A stretch of 64,000 nt of DNA from Candidatus Poribacteria bacterium (GCA_965197465.1 OZ240209.1:5078477-5142476), one strand, 5' to 3'; positions 1,929-46,566 are shown, numbered from the stretch's first letter. The notes: generated by a model not told the origin, from the sequence alone. Translations and numbers: made by a program.

Positions 1929-2765
1929 CTACGTTGTTAGTTCTCGGCTAACCACGGCTCTCGCCAAGTGTGGGAAGAGTTGGTCGTGGATTTCCATCGG
2001 CTGGCGGAGGTGAACCATGCGGTTCTCGTCAGCGGTATCTATCATGGTGGGATAGTATACGCCGGCTCCCGTTTTGAGCTTGTAACCCCCCGGCGAATGC
2101 GTGCTGAGGTATCGACGCGCAATGTCGAAATCTTCAGGTGACTTGGCGCGGCGGGTGCAATTCATGGTGAACATGCGCCTTCGATTTCCGCCGCCGAAAG
2201 AGGCGTGATAGAGATCGTGATTAAAAACCACAACATCGCCGGGATTGGTTTCCATAGCGACGCTGCCGGGGAACTCCCCGGGCGGGATACCGAAAAGCTC
2301 GAGCGAATTATTGACATCTATCTTCTGTGTGCGAACGTAGTGATCAGGTTTATGGCTCGCGGGAATGAAACGCAGCGCGCCGGTGTCGCGGGTTAGCGGA
2401 TCCAAATAGAACGCAATCTTGGCGGCGAAGAGTTTTCCCCAGCTTCCGTCAGGGTGCCAGCCGGTGTTGCCGCTGTAATAGTTGCCGTCACCGCCGCAAT
2501 AATTGAAATCCTCTCCCAGAATACTTCCGATGAGGTCAAGTATCACGGGGTGATCGAGTAGCGCGCACATGTCGGGTCTATGTTCAATGGGTTTCAGAAA
2601 CATGGTGCGGTGTGAACCGTCGTGATCTCGTCCGCCGCCGCAGTTCTGAATTGACCATTCAAATCTTTCGATGATTTCGTCTGTCTCTTCGGGTGGAAAC
2701 AGTTGTGGAATCATCAGGTAGCCAAAGGTGTCGAAGAAGCTCAGTTGTTCTTGAGTCAGTGGCAT
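1929..2765 (-). CDS. Phytanoyl-CoA dioxygenase (PhyH) family Fe(II)/2OG oxygenase
   Basis: 278 aa with PhyH-like sequence features (WHPD.., HxD..H arrangement). Confidence 0.6.
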   Translation of the reverse strand: MPLTQEQLSFFDTFGYLMIPQLFPPEETDEIIERFEWSIQNCGGGRDHDGSHRTMFLKPIEHRPDMCALLDHPVILDLIGSILGEDFNYCGGDGNYYSGNTGWHPDGSWGKLFAAKIAFYLDPLTRDTGALRFIPASHKPDHYVRTQKIDVNNSLELFGIPPGEFPGSVAMETNPGDVVVFNHDLYHASFGGGNRRRMFTMNCTRRAKSPEDFDIARRYLSTHSPGGYKLKTGAGVYYPTMIDTADENRMVHLRQPMEIHDQLFPHLARAVVSRELTT

Positions 2766-3058
2766 TTCTGTAACCTCCTAGAAGAAGGGGGTGGAAGGAT
2801 GGAAGCGGGGAAGGTTGGAAGGCTCCTTTTCGCGCCGCGTCCTATCCTCCGGAGCAGAACAAATGGGGGACAAATTGTTGGGTTTCACCGGGTTCAACGC
2901 AACCTACGGGATTGAAGGGGCGTAGAAACCGAGTTTTCAAGAAACACTCGGTTTCGTCGCGATTCGGAGATCGCTCCTACAGCCGGGCTGGAGGGATCTC
3001 TATCGATCAAGGGAGCGGCTAGTGACCGCGATAGAAATCTTGCTCCCTATCCGCTCGC

Positions 3059-3880
3059 TTAATCGCTCTGATTTGACCAGACGAGCGGGGTCTGAGATTC
3101 GTTGTTGAGGACATCTCCGATATCAAGGCTTTCTACCTGCTCATCGGACAGAACGTTTTGGATACCGTTGAATGTCGCACCATCCGGCATATAGATGCAG
3201 GTCATCGCCCGACGCGGATACGGTGTCATATTGGGGCCTGCGGCATGGGCAGTGAGTCCGTTGTGAAAACCGGCAGATCCAGCCTTCATCTCGGCAGCCA
3301 CAGGCTCAATCTCTCTGAAACCGGGATATTCGTCGAAGAGAGCTCCTATAGTGGGCCCAAAGTGCCCTTTCTTTTCATAATTTGTTAACTTGTGTGAGCC
3401 GGGCAGGTAGTACATGCAACCATTCTGTATCGTGGCGTCGTCCAAGGCAATCCAAATGGAGATTGCGTTAGGTGAGTGAAAAGACCAATTGGGATCGTCC
3501 ACGTGCCAGGACGTGGGGTTGTCCCAGGCACGTTTCTGCAATGTCTGATCGTGCCATACGCGGATGCCGTCAACGCTTGCGAGTTTGCACAGCATTTTCC
3601 CATGCTCGGGGTTCAGAAAATACTTTTTGACGGTGTCATTGATTTTCCACAGGTTGACGCGCTGGAGGAAGACTCTGTTGTAATAGGAATCCATCCCTTT
3701 ATTGAGCGCTTTGTTGCTTTCTCCTCCGTCGGCAATCCTGTCGTTCCCCATCTGCGTCACGGCTCCATTGACAGCGGAGCACATTTCCTCGAGTTCGTCG
3801 GAGGTAAGAAAGTCCTCGATTATGAGCCAGCCTTCGCGCTGGTAGGCTTCAATTTGTTGAAAGGTTAATGCGGTTTTCAT
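3059..3880 (-). CDS. Phytanoyl-CoA dioxygenase family protein (paralog A)
   Basis: 273 aa. About 75% identical to the neighbouring paralog at 4258-5103. ..WHVDDP.. / ..HNGLTAHAAGPN.. motifs. Confidence 0.6.
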   Translation of the reverse strand: MKTALTFQQIEAYQREGWLIIEDFLTSDELEEMCSAVNGAVTQMGNDRIADGGESNKALNKGMDSYYNRVFLQRVNLWKINDTVKKYFLNPEHGKMLCKLASVDGIRVWHDQTLQKRAWDNPTSWHVDDPNWSFHSPNAISIWIALDDATIQNGCMYYLPGSHKLTNYEKKGHFGPTIGALFDEYPGFREIEPVAAEMKAGSAGFHNGLTAHAAGPNMTPYPRRAMTCIYMPDGATFNGIQNVLSDEQVESLDIGDVLNNESQTPLVWSNQSD

Positions 3881-4257
3881 CTCAAAACTTGCCTGAATCG
3901 CGGATTAAACAGATTAAAGGATTTCACGGATTAAGATTGGCTAAGCGGTAAATCCCCTAGGGGTTGCGAAACATGACTCTTGTGCTAACTCCGTAAGATT
4001 TGAATAGTTAGAAAATATTCCATGTTAAGGCAGCCTAACATGGAAAATCTCTATCGCATTGGGAGTTCTATCGCACGGGATTAGCTATCAAGACTTTCTA
4101 TCGCCTTCACTATCCGTTCTGTTGATCGCTCGCTATTCAGTCGCTTGATCCTCGCCTACCATTATCGGGCGAGGGAACCTCGCCCCTACGGGCAATCGAC
4201 GTGAGTTGGGGCAACAGGATTGCTATCGCGGTCATTATCCATTCCCTTGATCCCTCG

Positions 4258-5103
4258 CTATTCACTCGGTTGATCGCTACCTGCAGCAGGCAGATTGGAC
4301 CAGACGAGCGGGGTCTGAGATTCGTCGTTGAGCACATCTCCGATATTGAGGCTGTCTACCTGTTCATTGGACAGGACGTTTTGGATGCCGTTGTAGGTCG
4401 CTCCATCCGGCATATAGATGCAGGTCATCGCTCGGCGCGGATTCGGCGTCATGTTGGGACCTGCCGCGTGAGCAGTGAGTCCGTTGTGAAACCCGGCTGA
4501 GCCAGCCTTCATCTCGGCGGCCACAGGCTCAATCTCTCTGAATTCGGGGTATTCGTCGAAGATTGCTCCCATATTAGGTCCAAAGTGCCCTTTCTTTTCA
4601 TAGTCTGTTACCTTGTGTGAACCGGGCAGATAATACAGGCAACCATTCTGAAGCGTTGCGTCGTCCAAGGCAATCCAAATGGAGATGGCGTTAGGAGAGT
4701 GAAATGACCAACTTGGATCGTCCACGTGCCAAGACGTGGGGTTGTCCCAGGCAAGCTTCTGCAACGTCTGATCGTGCCACATGCGGATGCCGTCAATGTC
4801 AGCGAGTTTGCATAGCATTTCGCCCAATTCGGGGTTCAGGAAGTACCTTTTGAGGGTGTCATTGATTTTCCATAGGTTGACTCGCTGCAGAAAGACTCTT
4901 CGGTTAAACGGCTTCACATCTTTGAAGAGCGCTTTGTTGATTGTTCCTCCGTCCGCAATTCTGGTGTCTCCCATCTGCGTCACGGTTTCACTGACAGCGG
5001 AGCGCATTTCCTGCAGCTCATCGGAGGTGAGAAAGTCTTCGATGATGAGCCAACCCTCGCGCTGATAAAGTTCAACTTGTTGGGATGTCAATGCTGTTTT
5101 CAT
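4258..5103 (-). CDS. Phytanoyl-CoA dioxygenase family protein (paralog B, tandem duplicate)
   Basis: The ORF runs to 5250, but the alignment with paralog A and an MKTALTSQQ start place the start codon at 5101-5103. Two dispersed-repeat copies lie in the spacer between the two paralogs. Confidence 0.6.
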   Translation of the reverse strand: MKTALTSQQVELYQREGWLIIEDFLTSDELQEMRSAVSETVTQMGDTRIADGGTINKALFKDVKPFNRRVFLQRVNLWKINDTLKRYFLNPELGEMLCKLADIDGIRMWHDQTLQKLAWDNPTSWHVDDPSWSFHSPNAISIWIALDDATLQNGCLYYLPGSHKVTDYEKKGHFGPNMGAIFDEYPEFREIEPVAAEMKAGSAGFHNGLTAHAAGPNMTPNPRRAMTCIYMPDGATYNGIQNVLSNEQVDSLNIGDVLNDESQTPLVWSNLPAAGSDQPSE

Positions 5104-5326
5104 CTTAATGCCTCCAAGTGATAGATTGTTGGAAATGAACGTAGCATCTCCCCTGCTCAAGCAAGTAGGTAGTTGATATATGCTTGCGCCAGCGAGTGCG
5201 AGATCTTGTCTGGAGCGTGTTAACCTAATCGCGGCTCCGATTCCCGACAAGTCGCGATTCGAAAATCGCTCCTACCGTTTAACGTAAGGTGGTTTACGGC
5301 ACATGGAGAACCACTTTGAAACGATG

Positions 5327-8094: not shown

Positions 8095-8300
8095 ACTGAA
8101 CTTACCCCCATCCTTTAGACAGAAACTAACGAGATTTAAGTAATAAAATCCGGTTAAACTTGGTCAAATTTCAACGTCTGAGGTTATTGGAAATACACCT
8201 GGTAGGGATCTCTACCGCACGCGCTATCCGCTCGCTTGCTGGTGTACAGTAATCGAGCGATTGATGAAACCGATGTGAGTGTCGATGGGGAGATTCCTGT
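8095..8300 (+). repeat. About 200-bp direct repeat, copy 1 (promoter region plus 5' end of small Cys-motif gene)
   Basis: Near-identical to 20058-20262 (cttacccccatcctttagacagaaactaacgagatttaagtaataaa..ggtagggatctctaccgcac..gtaatcgagcgattgatgaaaccgatgt..). Confidence 0.85.
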
Positions 8301-8424
8301 TTACATTACTAAATCGGGCAAGAAATATCACAGGGAAAATTGCCGTTGGGTAAATAGACCGTTATCATTGGCAAAGGCAAGGGAAATCTACTCGCCATGT
8401 AACAAGTGTAATCCACCGAAGTGA
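8236..8424 (+). CDS. Small Cys-motif protein (..GKKYHxxxC..C-x2-C), putative Zn-binding
   Basis: 62 aa. Paralog of 20197-20472 (N-terminal 25 aa nearly identical). Confidence 0.5.
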   Translation: MLVYSNRAIDETDVSVDGEIPVYITKSGKKYHRENCRWVNRPLSLAKAREIYSPCNKCNPPK

Positions 8425-9948: not shown

Positions 9949-10287
9949 GTGAATAAAAAGCATTGGTGGTGGATCGTCCCCGTCGCTTGCTTCCTGTTAT
10001 TCTGTTGTTTTAGCGCGTTCATGATATTCGTCGACGACGAATACGAGGGCCGTGTCCACCGAGATTTCGTGCACGTTAGGCTGTCCGAATTGACAAGAGG
10101 CGTTGAATACCCCAGTGAGGAATGGGACGCCGCCGCCGACCGTTACTTGGCCGAATATGATATGGTTATTGAGTCTTTGCCCCTGCGCCCTAAAGTAGAG
10201 CACCGGCTATGGCAGGTCTGGATCCCCATAGTATTCGACTTACGCTTAATTGACCTCTGGTTTTATCTAACAAACCACTTCCGATAA
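9949..10287 (+). CDS. Hypothetical membrane-anchored protein
   Basis: 112 aa. N-terminal TM segment (WWWIVPVACFLLFCCFSAFMIF). Confidence 0.3.
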   Translation: MNKKHWWWIVPVACFLLFCCFSAFMIFVDDEYEGRVHRDFVHVRLSELTRGVEYPSEEWDAAADRYLAEYDMVIESLPLRPKVEHRLWQVWIPIVFDLRLIDLWFYLTNHFR

Positions 10288-10319
10288 TGGCTGTTATGTG
10301 CCACTAGCTATTACGCTCC

Positions 10320-10510
10320 ACGATTTCACCTCATCATTTGTAGTTGTCCCTACCCATAGGTTACCCTGACACGGCACGACCCCACGAATTGTATCAAACT
10401 CACCCTCCGATGTGTCGCAGCGTTTCGTACTTTCCTATCTAACAAGTGAACACCAATGTTCATTTTTTATGCAAGAGGGGCATTGGCAGTTCTCGCAACA
10501 GTGCCTCTGT
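10320..10510 (-). promoter_or_regulatory. Conserved paralog-array leader element (orphan copy, no propeller gene downstream)
   Basis: About 85% identical to 11957-12235 and 46003-46262. Contains the gtgaacaccaatgttcatttttt palindrome. Confidence 0.6.
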
Positions 10511-10534
10511 CTTAACAATTTCTAGGGTGCGTCT

Positions 10535-10717
10535 ATGAAACGCCAGCTCGTTAAGGAAACGGTGATTAACAAGCAGACGCTGCTATTCGTATACACTGGT
10601 GGTGGAGCGTTCGGGCATGAGTTGGGGCTCGTTTTTGACGTTGGAGGAGGCAGAGGCGTTTGCCCGGCGCCACACCCACGGAGGAAAGGTGAACGATGTA
10701 TCAAGACAGGGGGCTAG
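10535..10717 (+). pseudogene. Degraded copy of the small divergent ORF (paralog of 12240-12458)
   Basis: Same N-terminus MKRQLV(K/R)ETVINK.TLLF. A roughly 20-bp deletion relative to 12240-12458 shifts the frame. Confidence 0.4.
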
Positions 10718-10845
10718 CCTCCCATGAATGTTTGAATCCGTACGAGGCGCACCTGTGGTGGCTGCCGATGTTCTTCTGGCGCAGCGCCCCGGATGTGACG
10801 ATGGCGGCGGTTGTTTTATCCTTTCTTCCTACCGCCTCCCCCATT

Positions 10846-11956
10846 TTATTGTTTTTGCTTTATGGCGCCCCAGGTGACGGCGGCTTTGTTGTAGGGTTGA
10901 AGGCGGGGAAAGGCGGCGCGGTAGATGCCCTCGTCCGTGGCGGCGTACAGGTCCGATCGATGGGATACGAGCGAGTCTACTTTGGCGCCGTTTAGTCCTA
11001 CGTAGGACCAGGTTTCGGATCGCTCATTAAACACGTACACGCCCCGGCGTCGAATTGCGGCAAAGATACGGTTGTCATGGGAAACCAGCGCATCTATATA
11101 GGCCCACTGCGAAGCCGATCGGTGATCGCGCGGGTGCGGCGGAAGGCCTTGGACAAGCGGGTGACTCAACGCGTTTTCGTATCGTGCGAAATAGGCGGTT
11201 TCCCCTTCGTCCCCTTCGTGATACTCTGCGGCAACATAGATTCGATTGTTGTGCACCACCCAGGCGGTAGGGAACCGGAGGCTTCCGTGCTGGGGGAGTA
11301 CGAATTCCCATGTGCGGCCGTTGTCTGGCGAACGTACTATCGTATATTTCAGGGCTGCCCACAGATAGCCGTCGAACTCTAGCAACTGGGCGTCATTATA
11401 AGAGAGGTAGTCATCAAGTGCGCCCTCGGCCGGCACGATCCACTCCAGCGTTACGTCCAGCCAGGTCTCGCCCCGGTCGTAAGATATATATATTGGGCCG
11501 CGCATCACGGCGATGACCGCGCCGGAACGTGTGACGAGTATTTGTTTAATCCAGCCGTAATAGGTACCTCCGTCGGCATATTCGAATAGGCGGAGCCCGT
11601 TGTTTATGGGCTTCCATGTCTCCCCCCGGTCGTCGGATCGCAACATGCCGACATCCCTATACGATCCGACATAGATGGTATTTCCATGGACGGTGAATGC
11701 GCTAACACCACGTTCGAATTCGGTCGTACGCCAAGTCCAAGTGGCACCGTTGTCGTCCGAGACTTCAAGTCCGCGCTCTGTCGCGCCGTAGAGGCGGCGC
11801 CCATCGGATTGGAGTCTGTACACACGATTATTGACCTCGGCGCCGCCGACCGGAATCCAGATAGTTTGGATGTCGGCATTCGATTGGTCCGCTAGCATAG
11901 TCATCATTACTAAGAAAATGAAAGCGGTTCGGATAAAACGTCGAGTCCATACCATT
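10846..11956 (-). CDS. Secreted BNR/Asp-box repeat beta-propeller protein
   Basis: Asp-boxes (RSDDRGETW, VSDDNGATW, SYDRGETW, RSPDNGRTW). Signal peptide starts at MVWTRRF, with the start codon at 11954-11956 behind a GGAGG RBS; the upstream in-frame extension to 12138 is probably not translated. C-terminus ..QPYNKAAVTWGAIKQKQ. Confidence 0.7.
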
Positions 11957-12235
11957 GGATTTCCTCCCTTCGAATCGATGGCTATCGGATTGATTGTGTT
12001 AGTAGAACTTGAGCAAGTTTTGTGCCACGCCCATAAGTTGCCGTGACTCGGCAGTATCCCACGAATTATATCAAACTTGCCCAGATGTGTCGCGGCGGTT
12101 TGTACTTTCCTATCTAACAAGTGAACGCCAATGTTCATTTTTTGTGCAAGAGGGGCGTTGGCAGCTATCGCAACAGTGCTTGTGTCTTACAATTTCGTGA
12201 GAGTGCAGGGCGGTGAACGCTCGGTTCAATTTCTA
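11957..12235 (-). promoter_or_regulatory. Conserved leader/promoter element upstream of the BNR gene
   Basis: Shared with 10320-10510, 14255-14381, 38860-39010 and 46003-46262. Palindrome tgaacGccaatgttca followed by T6. Confidence 0.6.
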
Positions 12236-12239
12236 GGAT

Positions 12240-12458
12240 GTGTCTATGAAACGCCAACTCGTTAGGGAAACGGTGATTAACAAGCGGACGCTGCTATTCT
12301 ACCGTCTGGAGAGCGGTTCGTATACGCTGGTGGTGGAGCGTTCGGGCATGAGTTGGGGCTCGTTTGCGACGTTGGAGGAGGCCGAAGCGTTTGCCCGGCG
12401 CCACATGCAGGGAGGGGAGGTGAACGATGTATCAAGACAGGGGGCTAGCCTCCGATGA
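12240..12458 (+). CDS. Small hypothetical protein, divergent from the BNR array
   Basis: 72 aa. Intact counterpart of the degraded copy at 10535-10717. Confidence 0.35.
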   Translation: MSMKRQLVRETVINKRTLLFYRLESGSYTLVVERSGMSWGSFATLEEAEAFARRHMQGGEVNDVSRQGASLR

Positions 12459-12974
12459 ATGTTTGAATCCGTGCAAGGCGCATCTGGGGTGGATACCGAA
12501 TGTTCCGGATCGGTTGGACGAAACCCCGGAGTAGGGTGACATGCTGTGTTTGTGGCCGCTGTTTTTGATGCGACCGGGCGACGGTACGATAGAGCACCGC
12601 GCCGTACACGCAGTGTGCTGATACGGTTCTGAGTGGAAGAGGCAGCCGACGTGCATCCGGCTCATTCGGTCAAGACGATCGACCGCATTAGGGATTCAAT
12701 GAAGGTACCTCTCCTTCGGTCAATCTCCGCATGCGTAGCGTAACAACGCGCCGCCGGAATGGCATTTCAGTCGTACCGCAATGCCGGCTTCGGCGGCATT
12801 GGCAGTTTCGTTCGTACAGTACGTCCAAATCTTCAGTGTCCGCCTTTCCAAATACCATTTCAAGATGGGGATTGTCGGACCGTTATCGGAGTCGGGTGCA
12901 TTGGTGACGGTGAGGCCGATAGGCGGTTCCGAAAAAACGACCTACGAGTAGGAGCAGTAGGATTAGTGGCTTCA

Positions 12975-13397
12975 TTAAGGTGTCCATGTGCGCAGTGTTG
13001 TGCGTCCGCAGCTCCACATTAAATCCCATTCGAGGACCTCGCCGCTGACAGGCGTGAAACGAATGCGGGATATGTCCTCGTTTCCAGCGCTGTACGACAT
13101 CGGACGACGAGGCCCATCGTGTTTAGCTCGTAAATAGCCGATGGGAGCCGAGAAGTAGACAGTGAACGACGCGTCTCCTGTTGCGTCGAATTCAGGGATA
13201 ATGGCACGCTTGGGAACATCATCGGGGGCGCTCCAATCGGCTGTAATGACCTGCATCGGTGGAGATACGCTGACCAGTAGAGCGGGATTGGCATCAAGGA
13301 TTACGTGCGGCACGACGTGGTTATGCTCTTGCGGGTCGTGTTGGTGGTCGCCGCAAGCGAAGAGAACGACCATCAGCAGCAGGCTTAAGCGTATCAT
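12975..13397 (-). CDS. His-rich lipoprotein (paralog family)
   Basis: Lipobox LFAC followed by GDHQHDPQEHNHVVPH. C-terminus ..LMWSCGRTTLRTWTP. Start assigned at MIRLSLLL (start codon at 13395-13397). Confidence 0.55.
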   Translation of the reverse strand: MIRLSLLLMVVLFACGDHQHDPQEHNHVVPHVILDANPALLVSVSPPMQVITADWSAPDDVPKRAIIPEFDATGDASFTVYFSAPIGYLRAKHDGPRRPMSYSAGNEDISRIRFTPVSGEVLEWDLMWSCGRTTLRTWTP

Positions 13398-13417
13398 GTT
13401 TTTCTCCTTTCGCCGGT

Positions 13418-13864
13418 TCACGGCGTCCAAACGGGCACTCGCGCGCTGCCGCAGTTCCAGATTAGTTCGAATTCCAGGTAGCGCCCCGGATAAGTCCGCG
13501 TGGACCACTGCACGTAATCTTGGCCCCCGGCCCCGGTGCCGTACCAGTTTACCGGAGGCGGATGCGGTCCGAGGTAACTAATGTGCACGTATAGCGGCGG
13601 CTTTGAGAAGGTGACGGTGATGACGTGGTCTTCTTTGTCGGCCGGCTCGAGGATAACGGCCTGCTTGACGACCGATGGGTGTGCGTCCCACTCGTCGGTT
13701 ACGGGCTTGAGCGGCGGGTCGATGTCTATGATAATAGCCGCGTCGGCGTCCACAACAAGCTGTGATACGACGTGTTCATGACCGTCGTCATGCTCGTGGC
13801 TGCAGGCGGCGAGTAGTAGCAGGAGTGGGGTTAGGATAAATGTTAAGCCGAGTTTGTTATTCAT
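13418..13864 (-). CDS. His-rich lipoprotein (paralog)
   Basis: LLAAC lipobox, then SHEHDDGHEHVV. C-terminus ..LIWNCGSARVPVWTP. Shares ..ITVTFSKPP.. with the 43978 and 44391 lipoproteins. Confidence 0.55.
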   Translation of the reverse strand: MNNKLGLTFILTPLLLLLAACSHEHDDGHEHVVSQLVVDADAAIIIDIDPPLKPVTDEWDAHPSVVKQAVILEPADKEDHVITVTFSKPPLYVHISYLGPHPPPVNWYGTGAGGQDYVQWSTRTYPGRYLEFELIWNCGSARVPVWTP

Positions 13865-14106
13865 GAATGGGCTCCTTCATTTTTTTTTAACGGCGAGCCA
13901 CCAGGGGGCGGCCAGCGGTTGCTCTTATCCGGCCATATATTCACAATCTGGACGTTCGGGCGGGGGGCGTCCGCCACGACGTGCGGCGGTGGGGATTCCT
14001 CGCCGCAGCCGGTTATCAGGACGACAGCACCGATGAAAAAGAATGCGTATAGGGCGACGATCACCGCCGCCTTAACGATTCGTACGAACAAATTGGAGCC
14101 GTTCAT
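13861..14106 (-). CDS. Small membrane lipoprotein
   Basis: 81 aa. TM segment then a ..ITGCGEE.. lipobox. A truncated relative lies at about 38700-38760. Confidence 0.4.
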   Translation of the reverse strand: MNGSNLFVRIVKAAVIVALYAFFFIGAVVLITGCGEESPPPHVVADAPRPNVQIVNIWPDKSNRWPPPGGSPLKKNEGAHS

Positions 14107-14254
14107 AGGGTTTTCACCTTTTCGGCAGTGTTAGTTCTCATAGCGGCAGCACTTCGTGAAAGTCGATCCGAGTTGAGTGCACAAAATTTGCCGTCTCTTG
14201 TAGAGTTGATAGTTCTTGAATTGATTGCGTTATTCGAGTGTGTGCAAGTTATGC

Positions 14255-14381
14255 GCCACTATCTATCACGCACCAAGGCTGTCCTAGTCCATAAGCTGCC
14301 CTGTATTAGCACTACCCTACGAATTGCATCAAACTCACCTCCTGCTGTGTCTTATTCGTATCTAACAAGCGAACGCTCGGT
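14255..14381 (-). promoter_or_regulatory. Conserved leader element (shorter copy)
   Basis: Aligns to the 5' part of the other leaders (..ccacgaattgcatcaaactcacc..tatctaacaagcgaacgc..). Confidence 0.5.
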
Positions 14382-14882
14382 TCAATGAAGGAGCCGCTCC
14401 GACGGATCTGCGCATGCGTACCGTAACAACGCGCCGCCGGAATGCCATTGCAGTCGTACTGCAAAGCCACCGCCGCCGGCTGCCGCTGTTTCCTCCGTAC
14501 AGTAGGTGGAAATCTTCGGTGTCCGCCCTTCCAAACGCCATCCCGATATGGGTATTGTAGAACGTCCGTCGGGGTCGGGTACGTCGGTGACGGTGAGGTC
14601 GATAGGCAGTTCAGAAAAAAGGACCCAGACCTGCTGCAGCCCCTCGTATGTGAGTTTTCCGATGCCGATTGGTTGTTTATCGCTGACGGATTGGCCCGGG
14701 TCTTCCCAGATGATTTGCGCATCGGGGTATGTGACTGGGGCGTGGGTATGGTCGGCCAGGCTGTGTTCGTGTGCTATGAGCGTATGCTCGTGGGTGTGGT
14801 CGTGTTCGTGTTGGTGGTCTGTTAGCGGGTGGTCGTGGCTGCAGGCGAGGAGGGTGATGAGCAGGAACATGAAGATTCTCAT
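14382..14882 (-). CDS. His-rich lipoprotein
   Basis: Lipobox LLAC followed by SHDHPLTDHQHEHDHTHEHTLIAHEHSLADHTH, a strong metal-binding signature. Confidence 0.55.
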   Translation of the reverse strand: MRIFMFLLITLLACSHDHPLTDHQHEHDHTHEHTLIAHEHSLADHTHAPVTYPDAQIIWEDPGQSVSDKQPIGIGKLTYEGLQQVWVLFSELPIDLTVTDVPDPDGRSTIPISGWRLEGRTPKISTYCTEETAAAGGGGFAVRLQWHSGGALLRYACADPSERLLH

Positions 14883-14896
14883 GAAACTTTGCCTCT

Positions 14897-15915
14897 TTAT
14901 TGTTTTTGCTTTATGGCGCCCCAGGTGACGACGGATTTGATGTGGGGGTGAACGACAGGTATTCTGGCTCGGTAGAGGCCTTTGTCTTCGACGGCGGCGT
15001 ACAGGTAATCCTGATGGGGTATGAGATCGACGACGAGAACATCGTGCAGCCCCGCCTTAACAAACGTTTCGGTGTGGTGGTCAAACTGGTAAACACCGGC
15101 GAAGAGGCGGCCGCGATGCACGGCCAAGCTTGTGAAATGCGGGGAGTCAGGTGAGGGTGGAAGCCCTTCGCTGAAATACTCCCAGTCGTGTTCGTCTTCG
15201 TTCCACCGGCCGAACACGTGGCGGATGACGTACAATCGGCCGTTAAATTCTTGCCAGTCGTCTATGCGGGTGAACTTAAATTTTTTAGTCCATCGCCACG
15301 TTTTGCCTCTGTATGGGGAACGGGTGATACCGCCGGTGGTGGCGGCCCACCAGTAACCGTCGAACTCGGCCATGGACCAGATATCGTGGCTAATGCGAAT
15401 CGTATTGTTAAAGTTCCCGGGAACGCGCCAGAGTTTGTAGGTACTCTTCCACCACTCGCCGCGGTTGGTGGATATATAGGCGCCCGCGTAATACTTGCAG
15501 GTTATGGCGGTGCCGGGGAGCGCGTAACGAGTATTTGGTTTACTTCGGCATACCTGCGCTCGTCGACAAACGGGCCAATGTCAAACGTGTCAATGCCGAC
15601 ACTTTTGTGTTCCCATGTGACGCCGCCGCTGTCGGAGCGGTATAGGCCGTGCTTAAGCGTGCCTGCATAGACGGCATTCTTACCGACGCCTATTGCAGTA
15701 ACGTGGCGGTCCGGCAGGGTTAATCGGAAGGTATAACCGGGGCCCCGGGACATGTAAAATCCGCCCGAATACCCGAGATAGAGGCGGTGCTCGTCGGATT
15801 CAAGGATGGTTGCATAATTCAGATCGTCGAAATCATAGACGAGCTCCCAGTCAACTTGAAGCGCGGCGTGGGCGACGGCAGCGAGTAGCATCGCGAGCAG
15901 AACTAGGTATTTCAT
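14897..15915 (-). pseudogene. BNR propeller paralog disrupted by frameshift/internal deletion
   Basis: N-terminal part (15502-15915, signal peptide MKYLVLLAMLLAAVAHA) and C-terminal part (14897-15373, ..EFDGYWWAA..VVTWGAIKQKQ) lie in different frames. About 70 bp is missing relative to the paralogs. Confidence 0.55.
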
Positions 15916-16943
15916 GGTCGTTTGATTGCTCCCCAGGTGACGGCGGCTTTGTTGTAGGAACTCAAGCGGGGGAAGGACGCGCGGTAGATCCCTTCCTCGG
16001 TGACGGCGTACAGATCGGATTGGTGGGATAAGAGCGAGGTCACGGTCACGCCGTCGAGGCCTGCGGGGAACCACTCTTCGGAGCGCTCGTCGAACACGTA
16101 AACGCCCCGGTTCACGAGTCCGGCGATCACACGACCGCGGTTAAGAACCAAGGCGTTTACCTCGCAACGGAGGGTTACGCCGCTGCTGTCCGGCAACCCG
16201 GCTACGGGATACCGCCACTGGTTGATGCGGTCGAACCGCGTTAAAAACGAGTTGCTCATCGGACCGTACTCCTTGGCGGTGATAAACACGGTATCATCGA
16301 GCACGGCCCAACCGGTAGGCCAAGCGAGCCAACGGAAGACCAGGTTACTATACTCGAAGATGCGAAAGCGGGCATCCTCTTCGGCTTTCAGTACGGCGGC
16401 GGTGGGGCTGCCGTGTTTGTCCAATATCGCGACGCCGCGTCCCACATGCCAGTCGGTGGCGTCGATGCGCCAGTTTCCACCAGCATCGCGCCACAAATTG
16501 CGGCCGTAGGGGGACTCATCGGTGCAGCACGCCATGGCACTGAATACAACGCCGTGAGGGGTGTAGAATTTGTACCGGTAGAGGCCGTAGTCAGCACCAG
16601 CCGGGAAGTCTCTTTGGGTATCGAAAAAGTGCAGCCCGCCGCCGACGTGCTCCCATGTTCTGCCACGGCTATCTGATCGATAGACGCCGTCATAGGCATT
16701 CGAGCCGACATAGACCTCGTCCGGGGTGGCTTCCAACACGCGCACCGGTTGAGTAAATCCGGTTAAACGCCAGGAGTGGCCGTTATCAAAGGACCGGTAG
16801 AGTCCGCGGGCAGTGCCGGCGTAGATGTTGCCGCCGTCACTTTTAATGATGTGCGCCGAATGTTCCGGGCCGTCGATTGGCGTCCAGGGCGAGGCGTGGA
16901 CGGAAGCGGCGAGCAGGATCACGATTAGGCTCAGGTATTTCAT
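15912..16943 (-). CDS. Secreted BNR/Asp-box beta-propeller protein
   Basis: Signal peptide MKYLSLIVILLAASVHA. Asp-boxes. C-terminus ..SSYNKAAVTWGAIKRP. Its stop TGA overlaps the ATG of the next copy (ATGA). Confidence 0.65.
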   Translation of the reverse strand: MKYLSLIVILLAASVHASPWTPIDGPEHSAHIIKSDGGNIYAGTARGLYRSFDNGHSWRLTGFTQPVRVLEATPDEVYVGSNAYDGVYRSDSRGRTWEHVGGGLHFFDTQRDFPAGADYGLYRYKFYTPHGVVFSAMACCTDESPYGRNLWRDAGGNWRIDATDWHVGRGVAILDKHGSPTAAVLKAEEDARFRIFEYSNLVFRWLAWPTGWAVLDDTVFITAKEYGPMSNSFLTRFDRINQWRYPVAGLPDSSGVTLRCEVNALVLNRGRVIAGLVNRGVYVFDERSEEWFPAGLDGVTVTSLLSHQSDLYAVTEEGIYRASFPRLSSYNKAAVTWGAIKRP

Positions 16944-16951
16944 GGTTTCCT

Positions 16952-17449
16952 CTAGCGGATGCCGAGGGTTAGCTTGGACTCGCCGATGGTGTAGAAATCG
17001 TTTCCGCTGATGAAGCTTGATATTTCGACGTCTATGGAGGTCACGATGCCCCGCCATTCGGGGTCGTGATTGTTTTTGTCCCAATCATAGGGCCACGCAT
17101 TGTAAAGGGAACAGTAAAAGTCATCCAATACTTTGGGAAAGATGCCGTAGTAAACGCTTGTGTCGGGGTATACGGTCACGTAGTACGGGGCGTCGTCTAT
17201 GACAAAATTACCGCCATCCCCGCTGAATCCTTTGTACGCAGCCCCCACGCGGACGGCTACCTGATAAGGCAGCGGCTCTCTCGCAACCAGCTTGTAGTGG
17301 TAGTATCTGTCAGAATCGGGAAAGTCCTCCTCCAGGGCTTCCTCGCCGCAGCCGGCTAACAGGCTTAACGCGGCGACGATGAATAGCACGGCGAGCGCAA
17401 TGAGCAGAGACAATTTTATGAGGCGTTCGTAGGCTTCGAAGCTGTGCAT
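16952..17449 (-). CDS. Lipoprotein, unknown function
   Basis: 165 aa. TM/signal then an LLAGCGEE lipobox. Tyr/Asp-rich. Confidence 0.5.
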   Translation of the reverse strand: MHSFEAYERLIKLSLLIALAVLFIVAALSLLAGCGEEALEEDFPDSDRYYHYKLVAREPLPYQVAVRVGAAYKGFSGDGGNFVIDDAPYYVTVYPDTSVYYGIFPKVLDDFYCSLYNAWPYDWDKNNHDPEWRGIVTSIDVEISSFISGNDFYTIGESKLTLGIR

Positions 17450-17750
17450 TTAGGTTGTCCTTGAGAAGTGACGGCATCCGGATAGACAATGACGGGCGAT
17501 AGAGGGCAAGTAGCGTGCCACTAGCGCAAACGCCGTCGCGGGCGTGGTTTTGCGGGGCGGCGGTTACAACAAAATGGACAGTGGTGTTCACTTTGTGTGC
17601 ACTGGCGAGGGTGGAATCGGGTGGGCTATTCTCGCCGGGAAAGGATGAATTAAGGTGAGAGAACGCATCAACCATTGCGATTGGCGGGCATCATAGCAAA
17701 GGTAAAATCGAGGTGTAAACAGAGAAACAATTAAGAAATACCAAGAGAAG

Positions 17751-18116
17751 TTGCAATTCTCATTCCCATCAGCTAAAATAGAGCACCACTTTTTTTGGGA
17801 AGGAGAATTACCAGTGCCGCAACGAACAAGCAAAATCTCGGATACCACACTCGTTGAGATTATCGCAAAACGGCTCCTTGGGGTAACACAGTCGGAAATT
17901 GCGAAAGAGTATGGGGTATCCAAACAAACCATTCAGTATTACGAGACAAAAGAGACCTCGAAGGATTTGAAGAAGATTGTACTTCAAAGGATAGCCGAAA
18001 CTGTGGGTGACGCACTCGGAGAACAGGCGCTTGAGCAACTGGCGATCCGGAAACATGATAAACCCGATAATGAGCCGGATGTACAGAGCGGCAACTTCGG
18101 CTTGAGCGCGAAATGA
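17751..18116 (+). CDS. HTH domain protein (putative DNA-binding)
   Basis: ..LLGVTQSEIAKEYGVSKQTIQYY.. is a classic helix-turn-helix. The start may be internal. Confidence 0.4.
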   Translation: MQFSFPSAKIEHHFFWEGELPVPQRTSKISDTTLVEIIAKRLLGVTQSEIAKEYGVSKQTIQYYETKETSKDLKKIVLQRIAETVGDALGEQALEQLAIRKHDKPDNEPDVQSGNFGLSAK

Positions 18117-20061: not shown

Positions 20062-20262
20062 ACTTACCCCCATCCTTTAGACAGAAACTAACGAGATTTA
20101 AGTAATAAAGTCCGGTTAAACTTGGTCAAATTCAGCGCCTGAGGTTATTGGAAATACACCTTGTAGGGATCTCTACCGCACTCGCTATCCGCTCGCTTGC
20201 TGGTTTACAGTAATCGAGCGATTGATGAAACCGATGTAAGTGTCGATGGGGAGGTTACTGTT
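20058..20262 (+). repeat. About 200-bp direct repeat, copy 2
   Basis: Near-identical to 8095-8300. Confidence 0.85.
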
Positions 20263-20472
20263 TACATTACTAAATCGGGAAAGAAATACCACCTAAAGAA
20301 ATACCACCTGGAGAGTTGCAACTGGGATAATAAGCCTATATCATTGACAGAGGTTAGGGATAGCTATGCTCCATGTGCTGTTTGTAATCCGTCGAAGTGT
20401 TCATGGCTCAAACCCAATAGAATTTCCTTGCTACTTGCCCGTAGCATCGTGTATGATAAGCACATGGTCTAA
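20197..20472 (+). CDS. Small Cys-motif protein (paralog; ..GKKYH..C..C-x2-C)
   Basis: N-terminus MLVYSNRAIDETDVSVDGE..VYITKSGKKYH is identical to 8236-8424. The C-terminus diverges. Confidence 0.45.
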   Translation: MLVYSNRAIDETDVSVDGEVTVYITKSGKKYHLKKYHLESCNWDNKPISLTEVRDSYAPCAVCNPSKCSWLKPNRISLLLARSIVYDKHMV

Positions 20473-27654: not shown

Positions 27655-28053
27655 GTGTCCTTGTCGGAACTAATACCATTATTGGCACTTGTCGTTACCA
27701 ATCTAGTTGCAGTGGTGGGTATTGTCTATTATATGGCATCGACACTAGGCAAGCGAATAGACGGTCTCGACAAGCGGATAGACGGTCTCGACAAGCGGAT
27801 AGACGGTCTCGACAAGCGGATAGACGATCTTAACTCCAATATGAACGCGCGGTTCAGCGATGTGAATGCGCGGTTAGGCGATTTAAGCCACCAGATGGAC
27901 ACTCGCTTTAGCGATATGAACGCCCGGATCGATGACCTCCGAACACAAATGAACCGGGAACACGACAACCTCTCCCGGAAAGTCGATACCCTGACCGACA
28001 CAGTCACCGCTCACATCGCCAATCAGGAAATTCACCAGAGCCCGCGAGTTTGA
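27655..28053 (+). CDS. Membrane-anchored coiled-coil protein with tandem heptad repeats
   Basis: N-terminal TM. Four tandem repeats of GLDKRID encoded by exact 21-bp tandem DNA repeats (27750-27833), followed by NARFSD-like repeats. Confidence 0.55.
   Translation: MSLSELIPLLALVVTNLVAVVGIVYYMASTLGKRIDGLDKRIDGLDKRIDGLDKRIDDLNSNMNARFSDVNARLGDLSHQMDTRFSDMNARIDDLRTQMNREHDNLSRKVDTLTDTVTAHIANQEIHQSPRV
27750..27833 (+). repeat. Four tandem 21-bp repeats inside the CDS
   Basis: gacaagcggatagacggtctc x4 with minor variation. Confidence 0.85.
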
Positions 28054-34563: not shown

Positions 34564-35385
34564 CTAATGGTCAGCTTTTATCTGACCCCAGATTAGCGGA
34601 AGTTTCCCCACGGGTTCAACAGCAGTAACGGCGGCTCCGCTCATTGCTTGAACAATTTGTGTTTCGTTCAAAGCCCCCCTCCACGCGCGAACCTCGTCGA
34701 TCAGACCGTCAAACCAACCCCTATTCTTGTGGCTTCTGCCAAGATACAGATTGGTGGTGTTATCAATTGAACCAGCGGCTGCGGCTTCTCCAATTTCGTG
34801 GTCGAGTACACCATCTATCCAGAACTGGATGATTGATGTATCCTTCCGAGTCACAACCACATGATGCCATTCGCCATCGGCAACCGAGGTGTCACCACCC
34901 CTAACGAAGCCTTCGTTGGCGAGCCGGTCTTCGTCCGGGACGCCATCATTGAATATGGTATCAAGCTGGCCGCCCGGCTCAATAGTAAGCCGGTATCCCC
35001 TACAGCACGGAGTTTCCGGCGCCTCCCAGGGGCCCCACTTGTTAAAGATGTAAGACTGCTCCTGGTCAAAAGGAGTCTTAACCCAGGCTTCCAAGCTAAG
35101 ATCGCCAGTGCCAAAGTTTGTGGCGGGATCCGGGAAAATCTCAATGGCTTGTTCACTAGCACGTGTGAACTGAATTGCGTTTCCGTGTTTACCGGCAACC
35201 ACGGCGGGACCATTTTCAAGAATTCCCACCATGCCATTGACATCCATGGTTTCGTCACCATTTATTTCATCCATGGTGAAGTGGAATGCTACTTCGGGGA
35301 CTTGGGCGCTATTTCTCAGAACAGGGAAGACACTGACAAACACGACGATAAAAAAGCAGATTGCGAGGTGTTTCAATCGCACCAT
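34564..35385 (-). CDS. Secreted LamG / concanavalin-A-like lectin domain protein
   Basis: Signal/TM from MVRLKHLAICFFIVVF. LamG-like core. C-terminus ..VGKLPLIWGQIKADH resembles the shared tail motif. Confidence 0.5.
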   Translation of the reverse strand: MVRLKHLAICFFIVVFVSVFPVLRNSAQVPEVAFHFTMDEINGDETMDVNGMVGILENGPAVVAGKHGNAIQFTRASEQAIEIFPDPATNFGTGDLSLEAWVKTPFDQEQSYIFNKWGPWEAPETPCCRGYRLTIEPGGQLDTIFNDGVPDEDRLANEGFVRGGDTSVADGEWHHVVVTRKDTSIIQFWIDGVLDHEIGEAAAAGSIDNTTNLYLGRSHKNRGWFDGLIDEVRAWRGALNETQIVQAMSGAAVTAVEPVGKLPLIWGQIKADH

Positions 35386-35763
35386 TTTGGTTTCCTCCAA
35401 TTTATGTTTTAGTTGAGCCTTACAGTGTCGAATTATCCCAATTCACCACCCGATTAACATCAATTTGGGTGGCTTCAAACGCAGACACCGTGAGGAGTTG
35501 AGCGACTCTTTCCGTGGTTCCTGACCTTCTGATGCACATGGCTTACCGTCCACATTCTCTAAAGTAGCTTATGCGAACGAATGGATATCAGGAATTATAG
35601 GGGTTGATGGGTACGAAGTCAAGCACAAATATTAAGATTCTGCTTGACTAATGGCTGGCGCTAGTCAAGTGTTGCGGAAAAACGGAAGATATTTTGATTG
35701 TCTAGCTTCTTGGTTGACCATTGAAAATGTCGCCCGTGGTTTATGATATCATGCAGATGAGGT

Positions 35764-38526: not shown

Positions 38527-38859
38527 GGTAAAATTAGTCGAAAAAGCAATACCATTCGACTGAGGAGGTACGCCTTGATTCCCCATTGCTAATAACGCTG
38601 GTAACTCCGTTTGAATCGTTGTTTCGACGCCCTAGCCGGGTTAAATTCCAAATCTTGATCGTTGGAGCAATTCTGTTATAACCAGTAGGCAAACAGGGCG
38701 ATGGTCACCGCAGCCTTAACGATTCGTTCGAGCAGGTCGAAAGCGTTCCTTTGTTTTCACCTTTTCGGATGCGCGCGATGATGCTTCGCACGGTATGGAC
38801 ATGCACGGTGTTGCCGGTCTCCTTCTCGAGGATAATTGCGCTAGAGTAGCTAACGCAAG

Positions 38860-39010
38860 TTGTGTGCCATTATCTATTACGCACCAAGATTTCACTTCAT
38901 CATTTGTGGTTGTCTCAATCCATAGGTTGCCCTGACTCGGCACTAATCCACGAATTGCATCAAACTCGCCCCCCAATGTGCCATGGAGACGCAACAGAGC
39001 CTGTGTCTTA
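38860..39010 (-). promoter_or_regulatory. Conserved leader element (partial copy) with truncated small-lipoprotein remnant downstream (38700-38760)
   Basis: Aligns with the 5' part of the leaders. The remnant encodes ..ERIVKAAVTIALFAYWL and lacks a start codon. Confidence 0.45.
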
Positions 39011-39560
39011 CAATTCTGGTATACTCAGCATCGGTTAATTTTGCGCAATTGTGCACCGAAGGTTTGTAGGAGCGATCTCCGAATCGCGACGGTCGGGAAT
39101 CGGAATTCCCTCCTACCACCTGCAAAACTCACGCTCCATTTCTTGACTCTAAAAAAACGCAACTTCCAACAGCGTAGAGTATAGAGCACCGGTGCTGACC
39201 TACCCTCGTGTTGGTAATACCATCACAAGAGGCATAGCCCTGTCGGAGCCATTCTCTCTTTGGCGGTGGTGTTTGCCCTAATGGACATAGCACAACCTCA
39301 ATGTCTCCTCATACCAATTCGTAATCCATAAGTTACAAGAACTGGGGGTTCGTAGTAGCGTAATTCATTGCGCGTCTCGTATCTGCTGTAACATTTAGAT
39401 TTTGAAATCGTATCAGAATTTATTATTGTCGTTCGGCAGTAGGGAATAACGATTGTTGAAAGAAGGGAAATCGACGATTTGATGATTCTCGATTTCTACA
39501 AACCCTTTGCCGCAATATCAAATTATTGCCAAAATCATCATTTTGCGCGTTCTGTGTACG

Positions 39561-40313
39561 TCAGTCCTGGCACCTGACCACGACATCGGTACTTAGCTCC
39601 AAGGCGGGGTTAATCTCAAGCAGCACACAGAGCAGCGATGTATCCACAAGGCTTTGATTGTGGTAAAGACCGAGCCCGCGCAATTGGATTAAGCCCGCCA
39701 ACGGCGTGATGTCCGTGATTTGATTATGGGCAAGGTGTAGCCAGCCTAATTGAGTTAAGCCTGCCAATGGCGCGATGTCCGCGATTTGATTGTGGGAAAG
39801 TTCTAGCTCGGTTAATTGGGTTAAACCTGCCAACGGCGTGACATCGGCAATCTGATCGTGGGAAAGGAATAGCCTGGTTAATTGGGTTAAGCCCACCAAC
39901 GGCGTGGTGTCCATAATAATTGGATTGCCCGGGTCGTCCAGAATTCGATTGTAGAAAAGCCACAACTCTCTTAATCGGGTTAAACTCGCCAATGGCGTGA
40001 TGTCTACAATCTGATTGGAGTCAAGTTCTAGCGTTGTCAGACTGGTGGCAAAATTCAAACCCGTTAAATCGCCGATGTTGCTATTTACCGCGCTAAGATC
40101 GGCCAACGTCGCCATCTCCTCGTCGGTGATGGGGGCGCCCTGCGCTTTACCGAGCGCCCGTTCAACCGCCTTACGGAGGTTGGGGTCGGGGATGTTCACT
40201 TGTACGGGGGCGGGTCGATAGCTTCCGATTAATTCTTCACGTGGATGTTCAGCCTCGCCGCAACCTGACGCGAAAAGGATGAGGAGAAAGACGAGGGGAA
40301 GCGTGCGAGTCAT
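39561..40313 (-). CDS. Leucine-rich-repeat (internalin-like) lipoprotein
   Basis: Lipobox LFASGCGE. At least eight 22-aa LRRs (LxxLxLxxNQIxDIxPLAGLTQL), encoded by near-identical 66-bp tandem DNA units around 39680-39960. Confidence 0.65.
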   Translation of the reverse strand: MTRTLPLVFLLILFASGCGEAEHPREELIGSYRPAPVQVNIPDPNLRKAVERALGKAQGAPITDEEMATLADLSAVNSNIGDLTGLNFATSLTTLELDSNQIVDITPLASLTRLRELWLFYNRILDDPGNPIIMDTTPLVGLTQLTRLFLSHDQIADVTPLAGLTQLTELELSHNQIADIAPLAGLTQLGWLHLAHNQITDITPLAGLIQLRGLGLYHNQSLVDTSLLCVLLEINPALELSTDVVVRCQD

Positions 40314-44390: not shown

Positions 44391-44774
44391 TTAGTCCGGG
44401 CACTTATAGTTTAGCTTGATGAAGCCTGCATCCCAAGAGACGACATAGGTAAACGTCCGGCCGGGGTACCATCGCGAGTCGCAAAATGTTTTTATAGTAA
44501 GTACGGGGCCTATCAGCACCCATTGCGATGCCAGGCCGTCATTGAGATTTATCCATAGGTCGTCAGGTCTTTCGGAGAAGGTGATGGTGATGGGTTGCCA
44601 GCCGTCCGTTCTTAATTCGCCAATGTTGATCTGATCGTCGTCGGGCTGGCCTTCGTCCAAGATCGGGGGGTCGATGCTAACGATATAGGCGCCGGTGACG
44701 GGTTCGTCCCGCTCGGGGGTTTCGCTGCAGGCGAGGAGGGTGAGGAAGATGAGTAGGAACATGGAGATTCTCAT
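44391..44774 (-). CDS. Small lipoprotein (tandem paralog 2)
   Basis: MRISMFLLIFLTLLACSETPERDEP... About 60% identical to paralog 1. Confidence 0.5.
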   Translation of the reverse strand: MRISMFLLIFLTLLACSETPERDEPVTGAYIVSIDPPILDEGQPDDDQINIGELRTDGWQPITITFSERPDDLWINLNDGLASQWVLIGPVLTIKTFCDSRWYPGRTFTYVVSWDAGFIKLNYKCPD

Positions 44775-44907
44775 GGTACTGTACCTCCGAGTGTAGGTGA
44801 CGGGATACCGGAGCATCCCGTCGGTTGGGAAAGGTAGGTGCACACATTCAGAAAATAAACAGTTAGTCCCTGACATTTTTCATAACACGCACCTCTAATT
44901 CACAGAT

Positions 44908-46002: not shown

Positions 46003-46262
46003 TGGATTGCCCCCCTCAGAACTGATGGCTATCGGATTGATTGCGTTAGTAGAGTATGAGCAAGTTATGTGCCACGCCCACAAGCTGCCCCGACTTGGCA
46101 CTACCACACGAATTTCATCGGCATTGTCGTCCGATGTGTTCCGGAGACGCAACGGCGTTCCGTGCTTTCGTATCTAACAAGTGAACACCAATGTTCATTT
46201 TTTGTGCAAGAAGGGCATTGGCAGTTCTCGGGACAGTGCCTGTGTCCTACAATTCTGGTAGA
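46003..46262 (-). promoter_or_regulatory. Conserved leader/promoter element upstream of the BNR array
   Basis: About 85% identical to 11957-12235, including the gtgaacaccaatgttcattttttgtgcaag palindrome with T-run. Confidence 0.6.
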
Positions 46263-46566
46263 GCACCAATGTTGCCCCAACCTACGAGGTGGAAGCCTGC
46301 TCACAGGAGTTATGGAACGAGTCTCATGTTTTGTACGGGGTTGTGGACGGATTAGGTTTGGCTAACAGTGTTGGGTTTCGCTTGAATTGCGGCGTTTTCG
46401 GGCAGAATGAAATATCGGAAGTCTTGTCTCTGTGCGCGATTTCAATTGGATTTCCGCTCAACCCAACCTACGGGCTAGGGCATTCAAAGGCTGGTGCGCA
46501 GTGCCCACCCTACAACTGTACGAAGTCGAGCTTAGCATGACAGTCGATTGGAGTTTTAACGTCAGG

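Follow-up and report, generated by a model that had tools for sequence, protein, structure and literature searches.

The enterobacterial glnAp2 is a sigma-54 promoter that is activated from NtrC dyad sites at approximately -108 and -140. The repeated element described here was found in a 64-kb stretch of Candidatus Poribacteria DNA (the window, meaning the whole of the stretch that was analysed). It resembles glnAp2 in having a -24/-12 sequence of the TGGCAC-N5-TTGC type, a dyad centred at approximately -140, a second site further upstream in some copies and, in the module copy termed c2 only, possibly a weak sigma-70 promoter between the putative enhancer and the predicted sigma-54 promoter. 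Unlike the NtrC sites (TGCACC-N5-GGTGCA), the dyad of the module is TGAAC-N6-GTTCA, and unlike glnAp2 the module belongs to the phylum Poribacteria and has as its cargo secreted BNR propellers and lipoproteins rather than genes of nitrogen assimilation.

Sigma-54 was reportedly viewed by Francke et al. in 2011 as a controller of the cell exterior. In the zraP-ZraSR and pspA-PspF envelope-stress regulons sigma-54 promoters drive periplasmic or exported proteins, as would be the case here, and the His-rich lipoproteins carried by the module recall the His-rich, zinc-binding ZraP, an analogy in which any link to metal is speculative; two-component genes are however not found nearby, and the likeness is drawn from promoter type and cargo. 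Putative mobile promoters, or promoter propagation, are said to have been described by Matus-Garcia et al. in 2012. As with these, a single promoter sequence recurs many times in a genome, stands before several genes that are not homologous to one another and leaves relics, but the module would be a sigma-54 promoter with an enhancer, it often includes signal-peptide codons and it occurs in different species of one phylum. The 5-N6-5 geometry of the dyad is that of CRP-family sites (TGTGA-N6-TCACA for CRP/FNR), although the half-site differs and there is no fixed distance to a sigma-70 promoter. The LexA Cheo box GAAC-N4-GTTC shares the GAAC/GTTC half-sites, but the spacer in the module is N6 (main form) or N5 (variant), with no instances of N4, and its genes are unrelated to DNA repair. 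The type of switch proposed is itself well known, and the Poribacteria cassette is a new example of it; the most probable reading of the element is a portable promoter cassette for sigma-54, which has its palindromic activator site approximately 140 bp upstream and which a sponge-associated Poribacteria genome sets before families of secreted proteins, and not an RNA element.

Copies of the module and their layout

Five copies, termed c1 to c5, were found in the window by a profile HMM (nhmmer), all on the minus strand and with E-values from 1.5e-100 to 4.5e-44; these are c5 at 45974-46292 (1.5e-100), c2 at 11927-12209 (6.8e-85), c1 at 10221-10560 (1.3e-61), c3 at 14172-14462 (1.6e-45) and c4 at 38785-39099 (4.5e-44). 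All of the five leader copies proposed in the initial annotation were recovered in this way, each lying inside a profile match. Their position upstream of paralogous operons holds for the intact copies but not for c1 and c4, which are relics with no credible gene downstream. Relic c1 ends after its -24 element (TGGCACATAACAGCC, 10289-10303, minus strand), the -12 element having been lost, and the copy in L038 is in the same state (loci related to the window carry L numbers). In c4 the sigma-54 element remains at 38855-38869 (minus strand), and the palindrome segment was lost by deletion between two TTGCG repeats. A diverged sixth copy, p6, at 17506-17590, had been missed in the initial annotation, and neither the module profile nor BLAST detected it.

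The large paralogous genes are on the minus strand (region 11700-12700 and the ORF list; for example 10846-11955), and the element must therefore be read as the reverse complement of the way in which it was first described. On the gene strand the order is a conserved upstream block, an A6 tract, TGAAC-N6-GTTCA, a conserved block of approximately 95-150 nt with optional insertions and TGGCAC-N5-TTGC, which is followed 3' by a predicted 5'UTR of approximately 46 nt, GGGAGG, an ATG and a signal peptide. In c2 the A6 tract is at 12138-12143 (minus strand), directly 5' of the palindrome, and it has high information content in 27 copies. It corresponds to the T-run that had been noted as following the palindrome; the run is present, but on the gene strand it consists of A's and comes first. 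The central conserved block of c2, between the palindrome and the promoter (12028-12121, minus strand), includes the weaker dyads CATC..GATG and TGCC-N7-GGCA. Transcription of c2 is predicted to start at approximately 12001, which is downstream of the palindrome, so that only the approximately 46 nt at 11956-12001 (minus strand, with the RBS GGGAGG at 11963-11968) would count as 5'UTR, and not the approximately 200 nt that had been suggested.

A protein-guided scan yielded 18 loci from the genomes of eight Poribacteria species, and in 13 of these (14 copies) the same layout stands ahead of the homolog; the palindrome, approximately 123 nt, TGGCAC-N5-TTGC, and then an ATG 57 or 72 nt past the T of TGGC, with GGGAGG 7 nt ahead of it. 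Six extra loci were obtained via homologous proteins and the L038 locus was added later. In approximately 275 kb of Poribacteria DNA there are 28 module copies above 100 bits, or 29 nhmmer hits once L038 is counted, and one of the 29 is the second fragment of the L012 copy, which is split between the -12 element and the 5'UTR by an insertion of approximately 158 nt (2795-2952). The cassette is present in all eight of the Poribacteria species genomes returned and in five further assemblies. GG...TTGC is kept in 27 of the 29 hits and the dyad, across at least eight species, in 26, and indels of 11, 13, 26 and 47 nt take away or add whole dyads. A metagenome scan with TGAACATTGGYGTTCAYNTNTT produced no new copies; its 13 matches are all unrelated, seven encoding the MNIGVH motif within another CDS and the rest lying in unrelated sequence, and the -24/-12 motif accompanies none of them. 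No flanking inverted repeats were found around the element, and an invertible promoter was rejected on account of their absence.

The predicted -24/-12 promoter

Alignment of the five copies on the gene strand revealed an invariant GTGGCACATAACTTGC. When the minus strand of the window was searched with the pattern TGGC-N7-TTGC, sites were returned at 12013, 14244, 17506, 38855 and 46060, each upstream of paralog operons. The strict form TGGCAC-N5-TTGC occurs 24 times in the 275 kb of Poribacteria DNA, every time in a module copy or in p6, and its GG and GC dinucleotides are exactly 10 nt apart (27 of 29 module copies and p6). Information content reaches 8-9 (of 9) across GTGGCACA and CTTGC, falls to 0 in the first position of the spacer and is 2-3 directly past TTGC; the drop in conservation right after TTGC gives the profile that is expected of sigma-54. 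The module sequence also agrees with the published sigma-54 consensus, TGGCAC-N5-7-TTGCT (PMC12316311).

The predicted promoters are all on the minus strand. That of c2 is TGGCACAAAACTTGC at 12013-12027, in which the GG and TTGC are essentially invariant among the copies (27 of 29) and the N5 spacer varies. The promoter of c3, TGGCGCATAACTTGC at 14244-14258, would drive the small lipoprotein genes 13861-14106, 13418-13864 and 12975-13508, and that of p6, TGGCACGCTACTTGC at 17506-17520, would drive 16952-17449 and the BNR paralog 15912-16946. The c5 promoter, TGGCACATAACTTGC at 46060-46074, would drive 44908-46002 and probably also the downstream lipoprotein, BNR and LRR genes to approximately 39561.

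A second GG-N10-GC family, TGGCAGG-N4-TTTGC, which is unrelated in sequence to the module, is located approximately 100 nt upstream of the ATG of LamG genes at six loci (L003 2521-2535, L004 366-380 and 5976-5990, L008 1436-1450, L010 2534-2548, L012 1291-1305 and L035 7361-7375, minus strand). The presence of this second sigma-54-like family suggests that the phylum uses sigma-54. The family is noncoding, is transcribed divergently from the module and is absent from the window.

Sigma-54 use in Poribacteria is assumed here. The rpoN gene was not found in the 64-kb window, in approximately 210 kb of related loci or in the 10 kb beyond the window's left end, and the same sequences contained no AAA+ activator gene, Sigma54_activat domain or GAFTGA motif; for the activator, 30 window ORFs were compared with Pfam, all loci were scanned for motifs and the gene tables of the six extra loci were read. 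The literature returned nothing linking Poribacteria with sigma-54 or BNR, and nothing on the motif itself. It is quite likely that the repeated element is a sigma-54 promoter.

The upstream dyad and competing readings

The exact TGAACA-N4-TGTTCA palindrome (6+6) occurs in the window only at 10447-10462, in relic c1, and at 46182-46197, in c5, and with 0 expected from 100 shuffles it is far beyond chance. Three copies had been credited with the perfect form, but the copy at 12122-12137, TGAACGCCAATGTTCA, is 5+5. On the gene strand this main palindrome of c2 reads TGAACATTGGCGTTCA, and its core is TGAAC-N6-GTTCA. The inner pair varies over 27 copies, being A/C in the majority and otherwise A/T or G/C, and it is therefore TGAAC-N6-GTTCA that constitutes the conserved dyad. 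The dyad of c3, TGAACCGAGCGTTCG (14370-14384, minus strand), overlaps the stop codon of the gene 14382-14882, and p6 has the palindrome-like TGAACACCACTGTCCA (17575-17590, minus strand) 70 nt upstream of its -24 element. The candidate TGAACGCGCGGTTCA at 27842-27856 lies within a coiled-coil CDS and was discarded as unrelated.

From the start of the dyad to the T of TGGCAC the distance is 110-112 nt in five copies, 122-125 nt in 13 and 137-170 nt in eight. Relative to the predicted start, the centre of the dyad is at -88.5 in p6, approximately -128.5 in c2, -141.5 in 13 copies and as far as -188.5. The sites of enhancer-binding proteins are usually located 100-150 bp ahead of a sigma-54 promoter (PMC7057263).

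A distal second dyad in c2, TGAACCGAGCGTTCA (12214-12228, minus strand, 5-N5-5), also missed in the initial annotation, is located 91 nt upstream of the main palindrome. The same 15-mer is present in L036, L037 and L038, with different flanks and again 91 nt upstream of the main dyad; a second upstream dyad is restricted to c2 and these three loci, and most copies have one clear site. Half-sites occur in three contexts, namely the main form with its ATTGGY spacer, a form with a CGAGC spacer (c3 and the distal sites of c2, L036, L037 and L038) and the diverged p6. In c3 the CGAGC-spacer dyad is the only one, 126 nt from the -24 element. Copy p6 keeps TGAACAccacTGTCCA 70 nt from a perfect TGGCAC-N5-TTGC and little else besides a few short flanking and 5'UTR motifs. 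This retention, together with the second form of the dyad, argues for more than plain inheritance of a duplicated block. An inverted orientation of the p6 palindrome with respect to its promoter was also considered and rejected, as the flanks align directly and p6 is a diverged direct homolog.

The position of the dyad and the adjoining -24/-12 promoter point to an enhancer, or UAS, for a sigma-54 activator and not to a classical operator. An operator for a dimeric regulator had come closest among the three readings offered originally; the dyad is real and selected, and it is the role of operator that its position and the adjacent promoter disfavour. We lean towards the dyad being the enhancer of the sigma-54 promoter, and the combined reading, of a sigma-54 promoter with an upstream enhancer dyad for a dimeric activator, is put at a probability of roughly 0.6 from sequence evidence.

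Judging from the workings of sigma-54 systems, RNA polymerase with sigma-54 would sit as a closed complex on the -24/-12 element. A dimeric helix-turn-helix AAA+ enhancer-binding protein, presumably encoded elsewhere in the genome, would bind the TGAAC/GTTCA dyad and, in some copies, also the second dyad 91 nt further upstream. This activator would oligomerise, loop the DNA and open the promoter using ATP, with the A-tract and the central block possibly assisting the looping; no match to the IHF site WATCAANNNNTTR was seen between enhancer and promoter when the aligned copies were inspected by eye. The cassette would in this way turn on operons for secreted BNR beta-propellers, His-rich small lipoproteins and an LRR lipoprotein. 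Against the enhancer model, the distances between palindrome and promoter differ by 12, 14, 24, 37 and 47 nt and do not step by whole helical turns, and c3 and c4 retain the promoter with a degenerate palindrome or none. Moreover, conservation alone does not single out the dyad, since it extends over the spacer and all of the surrounding 45 nt; and as palindrome and promoter co-occur in one homologous, recombining module, their association is not independent evidence.

The dyad may instead be the site of another dimeric factor, such as an HTH repressor or activator (CRP/FNR-like, TetR-like or other), and not of an AAA+ activator. Such a factor would modulate either the sigma-54 promoter itself or a weak sigma-70 one located in the central block, in the manner of the tandem glnAp1/glnAp2, and a tandem weak sigma-70 promoter, as at glnA, is possible in some copies. 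The CRP-family geometry of the dyad would fit such a factor, and the activator gene is linked to no copy in the window or the related loci. Some sigma-54 activators, furthermore, lack a DNA-binding domain. In the central block of c2 there is a good sigma-70-type promoter, GCGACA-17-TATAAT with a TG extension (12093-12065, minus strand), but it is the only good one, and nearly all other copies have hexamers of poor sequence or wrong spacing (19-20 nt), with TGCAAT, TGAAAT or TGAAGA, which lack A2 or T6, in the place of the -10. Class I or class II activation by CRP/FNR acts at a fixed distance from a sigma-70 -35/-10, whereas the distances here are variable. The 70 to 250 nt between dyad and promoter suit an enhancer, and not class I/II activation or promoter occlusion. 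A different dimeric factor is judged rather unlikely. The window also contains a canonical sigma-70 promoter, TTGACT-17-TATAAT, at 35594-35622 (minus strand), upstream of the LamG gene 34564-35400, which indicates that the genome uses the standard sigma-70 consensus.

The similarity between copies raises the question of whether the palindrome has a regulatory role of its own, or is a passenger in a cassette kept similar by recent duplication and gene conversion, or a recombination hot spot. Between paralogs the mean nucleotide identity is 0.77 for the module and 0.82 for both the 5'UTR and the first 25 codons, compared with 0.62 (0.50 for amino acids) for the rest of the CDS, and the module exceeds the CDS in 79 of 91 pairs. 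Between the orthologs c5 and L007 or L009, the CDS is 0.96-0.97 identical and the module only approximately 0.85. The element had been described as more conserved than the coding sequences downstream, and this is correct for paralogs but is reversed in true orthologs.

Copies are also mosaics. When 46292-45974 and 12209-11927 were compared with L001, L005, L007, L009 and L036, segments were found that are 94-98% identical to a non-orthologous copy and 74-85% to the orthologous one. The upstream segment of L007, for example, is 97% identical to L001 and 95% to a copy in front of a lipoprotein operon, as against 85% to that of its CDS ortholog, and the central block of L009 is 94% identical to L036 and 74% to its ortholog's. 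This suggests gene conversion among the promoter cassettes, and recombination among copies therefore adds to their similarity, alongside constraint. The cassette, 5'UTR and signal peptide would duplicate with the genes and the copies would also swap segments by recombination, which helps to explain why the cassette looks better conserved than the paralogous CDS. It had been proposed that the promoter and a divergent small ORF are carried along on duplication; the promoter cassette does travel with the genes, but the divergent ORF (12246-12458, plus strand, 70 aa, no family match) accompanies only a few copies, and in two of these it is damaged, by a frameshift (10535-10721) or by an internal stop (L004).

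The mosaic copies, the divergence of modules between orthologs with nearly identical CDS, and the gene-less relics that still hold the palindrome would all suit a passenger. Few positions are as well conserved as the half-sites, however, and these turn up again in other flanks and around another spacer, and persist in p6, where most of the module has decayed; the retention of the dyad, in 26 of 29 copies and at least eight species, also counts against a passenger. A palindrome with no role of its own is regarded as quite improbable.

An attenuator or cis-regulatory RNA in the 5'UTR had been among the original readings, with covariation as the check for a structured RNA. No compensatory substitutions were found in the module copies, and the covariation terms are positive. 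RNAalifold gave -8.5 kcal/mol over 400 columns for 20 copies, with a covariation term of +0.37, and -6.8 kcal/mol with 0 compensatory pairs for the 5'UTR and early CDS. Complementary cells amount to 90% for TGAAC-N6-GTTCA and 88% for the four named dyads, versus 26-40% for the whole four-dyad structure with partners slid by 1-3 columns, and the one double substitution equals the shuffled mean. The 279-nt region folds no better than its shuffles on either strand (z = +0.22 and -0.92), and Rfam returned no match at the gathering threshold nor at an E of 1 or less. On the plus strand the palindrome does give a 9-bp AU-rich stem followed by U's (-7 to -7.7 kcal/mol; z = -3.5 for one copy), and most one-sided changes in the dyads would still allow a G-U pair on the gene strand. 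The genes are however on the opposite strand, where the hairpin is weak (-3.8 to -4.3 kcal/mol, z approximately +0.2) and is positioned after an A-run, and the plus strand has no upstream gene to terminate, which is not the arrangement of an intrinsic terminator. Most copies have an A-C mismatch at the inner pair, and whole dyads are lost or gained through indels of 11-47 nt. It is extremely improbable that the region works as a terminator, an attenuator or a structured leader RNA whose hairpin and U-run act in the transcript; this reading is largely refuted in silico, failing on the refuting conditions given in the initial annotation.

Cargo genes and neighbouring sequence

The main cargo of the predicted sigma-54 cassette is a family of secreted BNR/Asp-box beta-propellers of approximately 365 aa, with 231 homologs at an E of 1e-5 or better; in the sources these Poribacteria proteins carry the names "sialidase family" or "PQQ-like propeller". 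The paralog behind c2 (10846-11955, minus strand, 369 aa) starts MVWTRRFIRTAFIFLV, with GGGAGG 7 nt before the ATG. Another ATG, within the palindrome (ATGAACATTGGCGTTCAC, MNIGVH), opens an in-frame 61-codon extension of this BNR gene (ORF 10846-12138), and the database protein P0083 (425 aa) is called with such an N-terminal extension. The extension was rejected as an artefact, given the indels of 11, 13, 26 and 47 nt and the strong RBS and signal peptide at the real start; since these indels between copies are not triplets, the stretch from the palindrome ATG is noncoding. For annotation this is a warning that the palindrome ATG generates false N-terminal extensions, and also that a noncoding region apparently better conserved than its gene can stem from recombination between promoter copies.

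His-rich small lipoproteins are found behind the same cassette in c3 of the window and in L004, L036 and L037. They combine His-rich N-termini (CSHDHPHEHPL...HEH) with a conserved Cys-containing C-terminal domain (14382-14882, 13418-13864, 12975-13508 and 44391-44876, minus strand; L004 812-2406), and a metal-binding role is conceivable. These genes travel with the BNR genes and are the first gene behind the sigma-54 cassette in several loci.

If the reading as a sigma-54 promoter with an enhancer is true, it would provide the first concrete regulatory handle on this uncultivated, sponge-symbiont phylum. The expanded family of secreted beta-propellers, with more than 200 homologs, and the His-rich lipoproteins would then be one sigma-54 regulon, marked by a defined enhancer motif, and both signal and activator could be found by scanning genomes for this motif and for activators whose DNA-binding domains match. 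A more far-reaching idea, which is speculative and unlikely, is that enhancer, sigma-54 promoter, 5'UTR and signal-peptide codons make up a recombining cassette that is shuffled among dozens of paralogous genes for surface or secreted proteins. Exported BNR propellers and His-rich lipoproteins would on this idea be diversified or switched by gene conversion under a single signal, perhaps in connection with living in the sponge host, and the relics would be footprints of the process.

Several further features were observed in the window. The N- and C-terminal halves of one BNR paralog are in separate ORFs (14897-15373 and 15502-16074, minus strand), and this gene, which lies inside the p6 operon, is probably a pseudogene resulting from a frameshift or truncation. 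Divergent from the p6 promoter is a helix-turn-helix-like ORF of 100 aa (17814-18116, plus strand, containing ..LGVTQSEIAKEYGVSKQTIQYYE..), which is a possible local regulator. The c5 gene string ends in an LRR lipoprotein (39561-40313, minus strand) that has 66-nt (22-aa) tandem repeats at 39653-39912. The first paralog island is flanked by a 165-nt direct repeat, 93% identical, the copies of which are approximately 12 kb apart at 8167-8331 and 20128-20292. Finally, 1929-5250 (minus strand) contains three tandem PhyH (phytanoyl-CoA dioxygenase) paralogs, in which 3070-3369 and 4293-4592 share 300 nt at 88%, and these are accompanied by LamG, xylose-isomerase-like and GFO/IDH genes, a typical Poribacteria repertoire.
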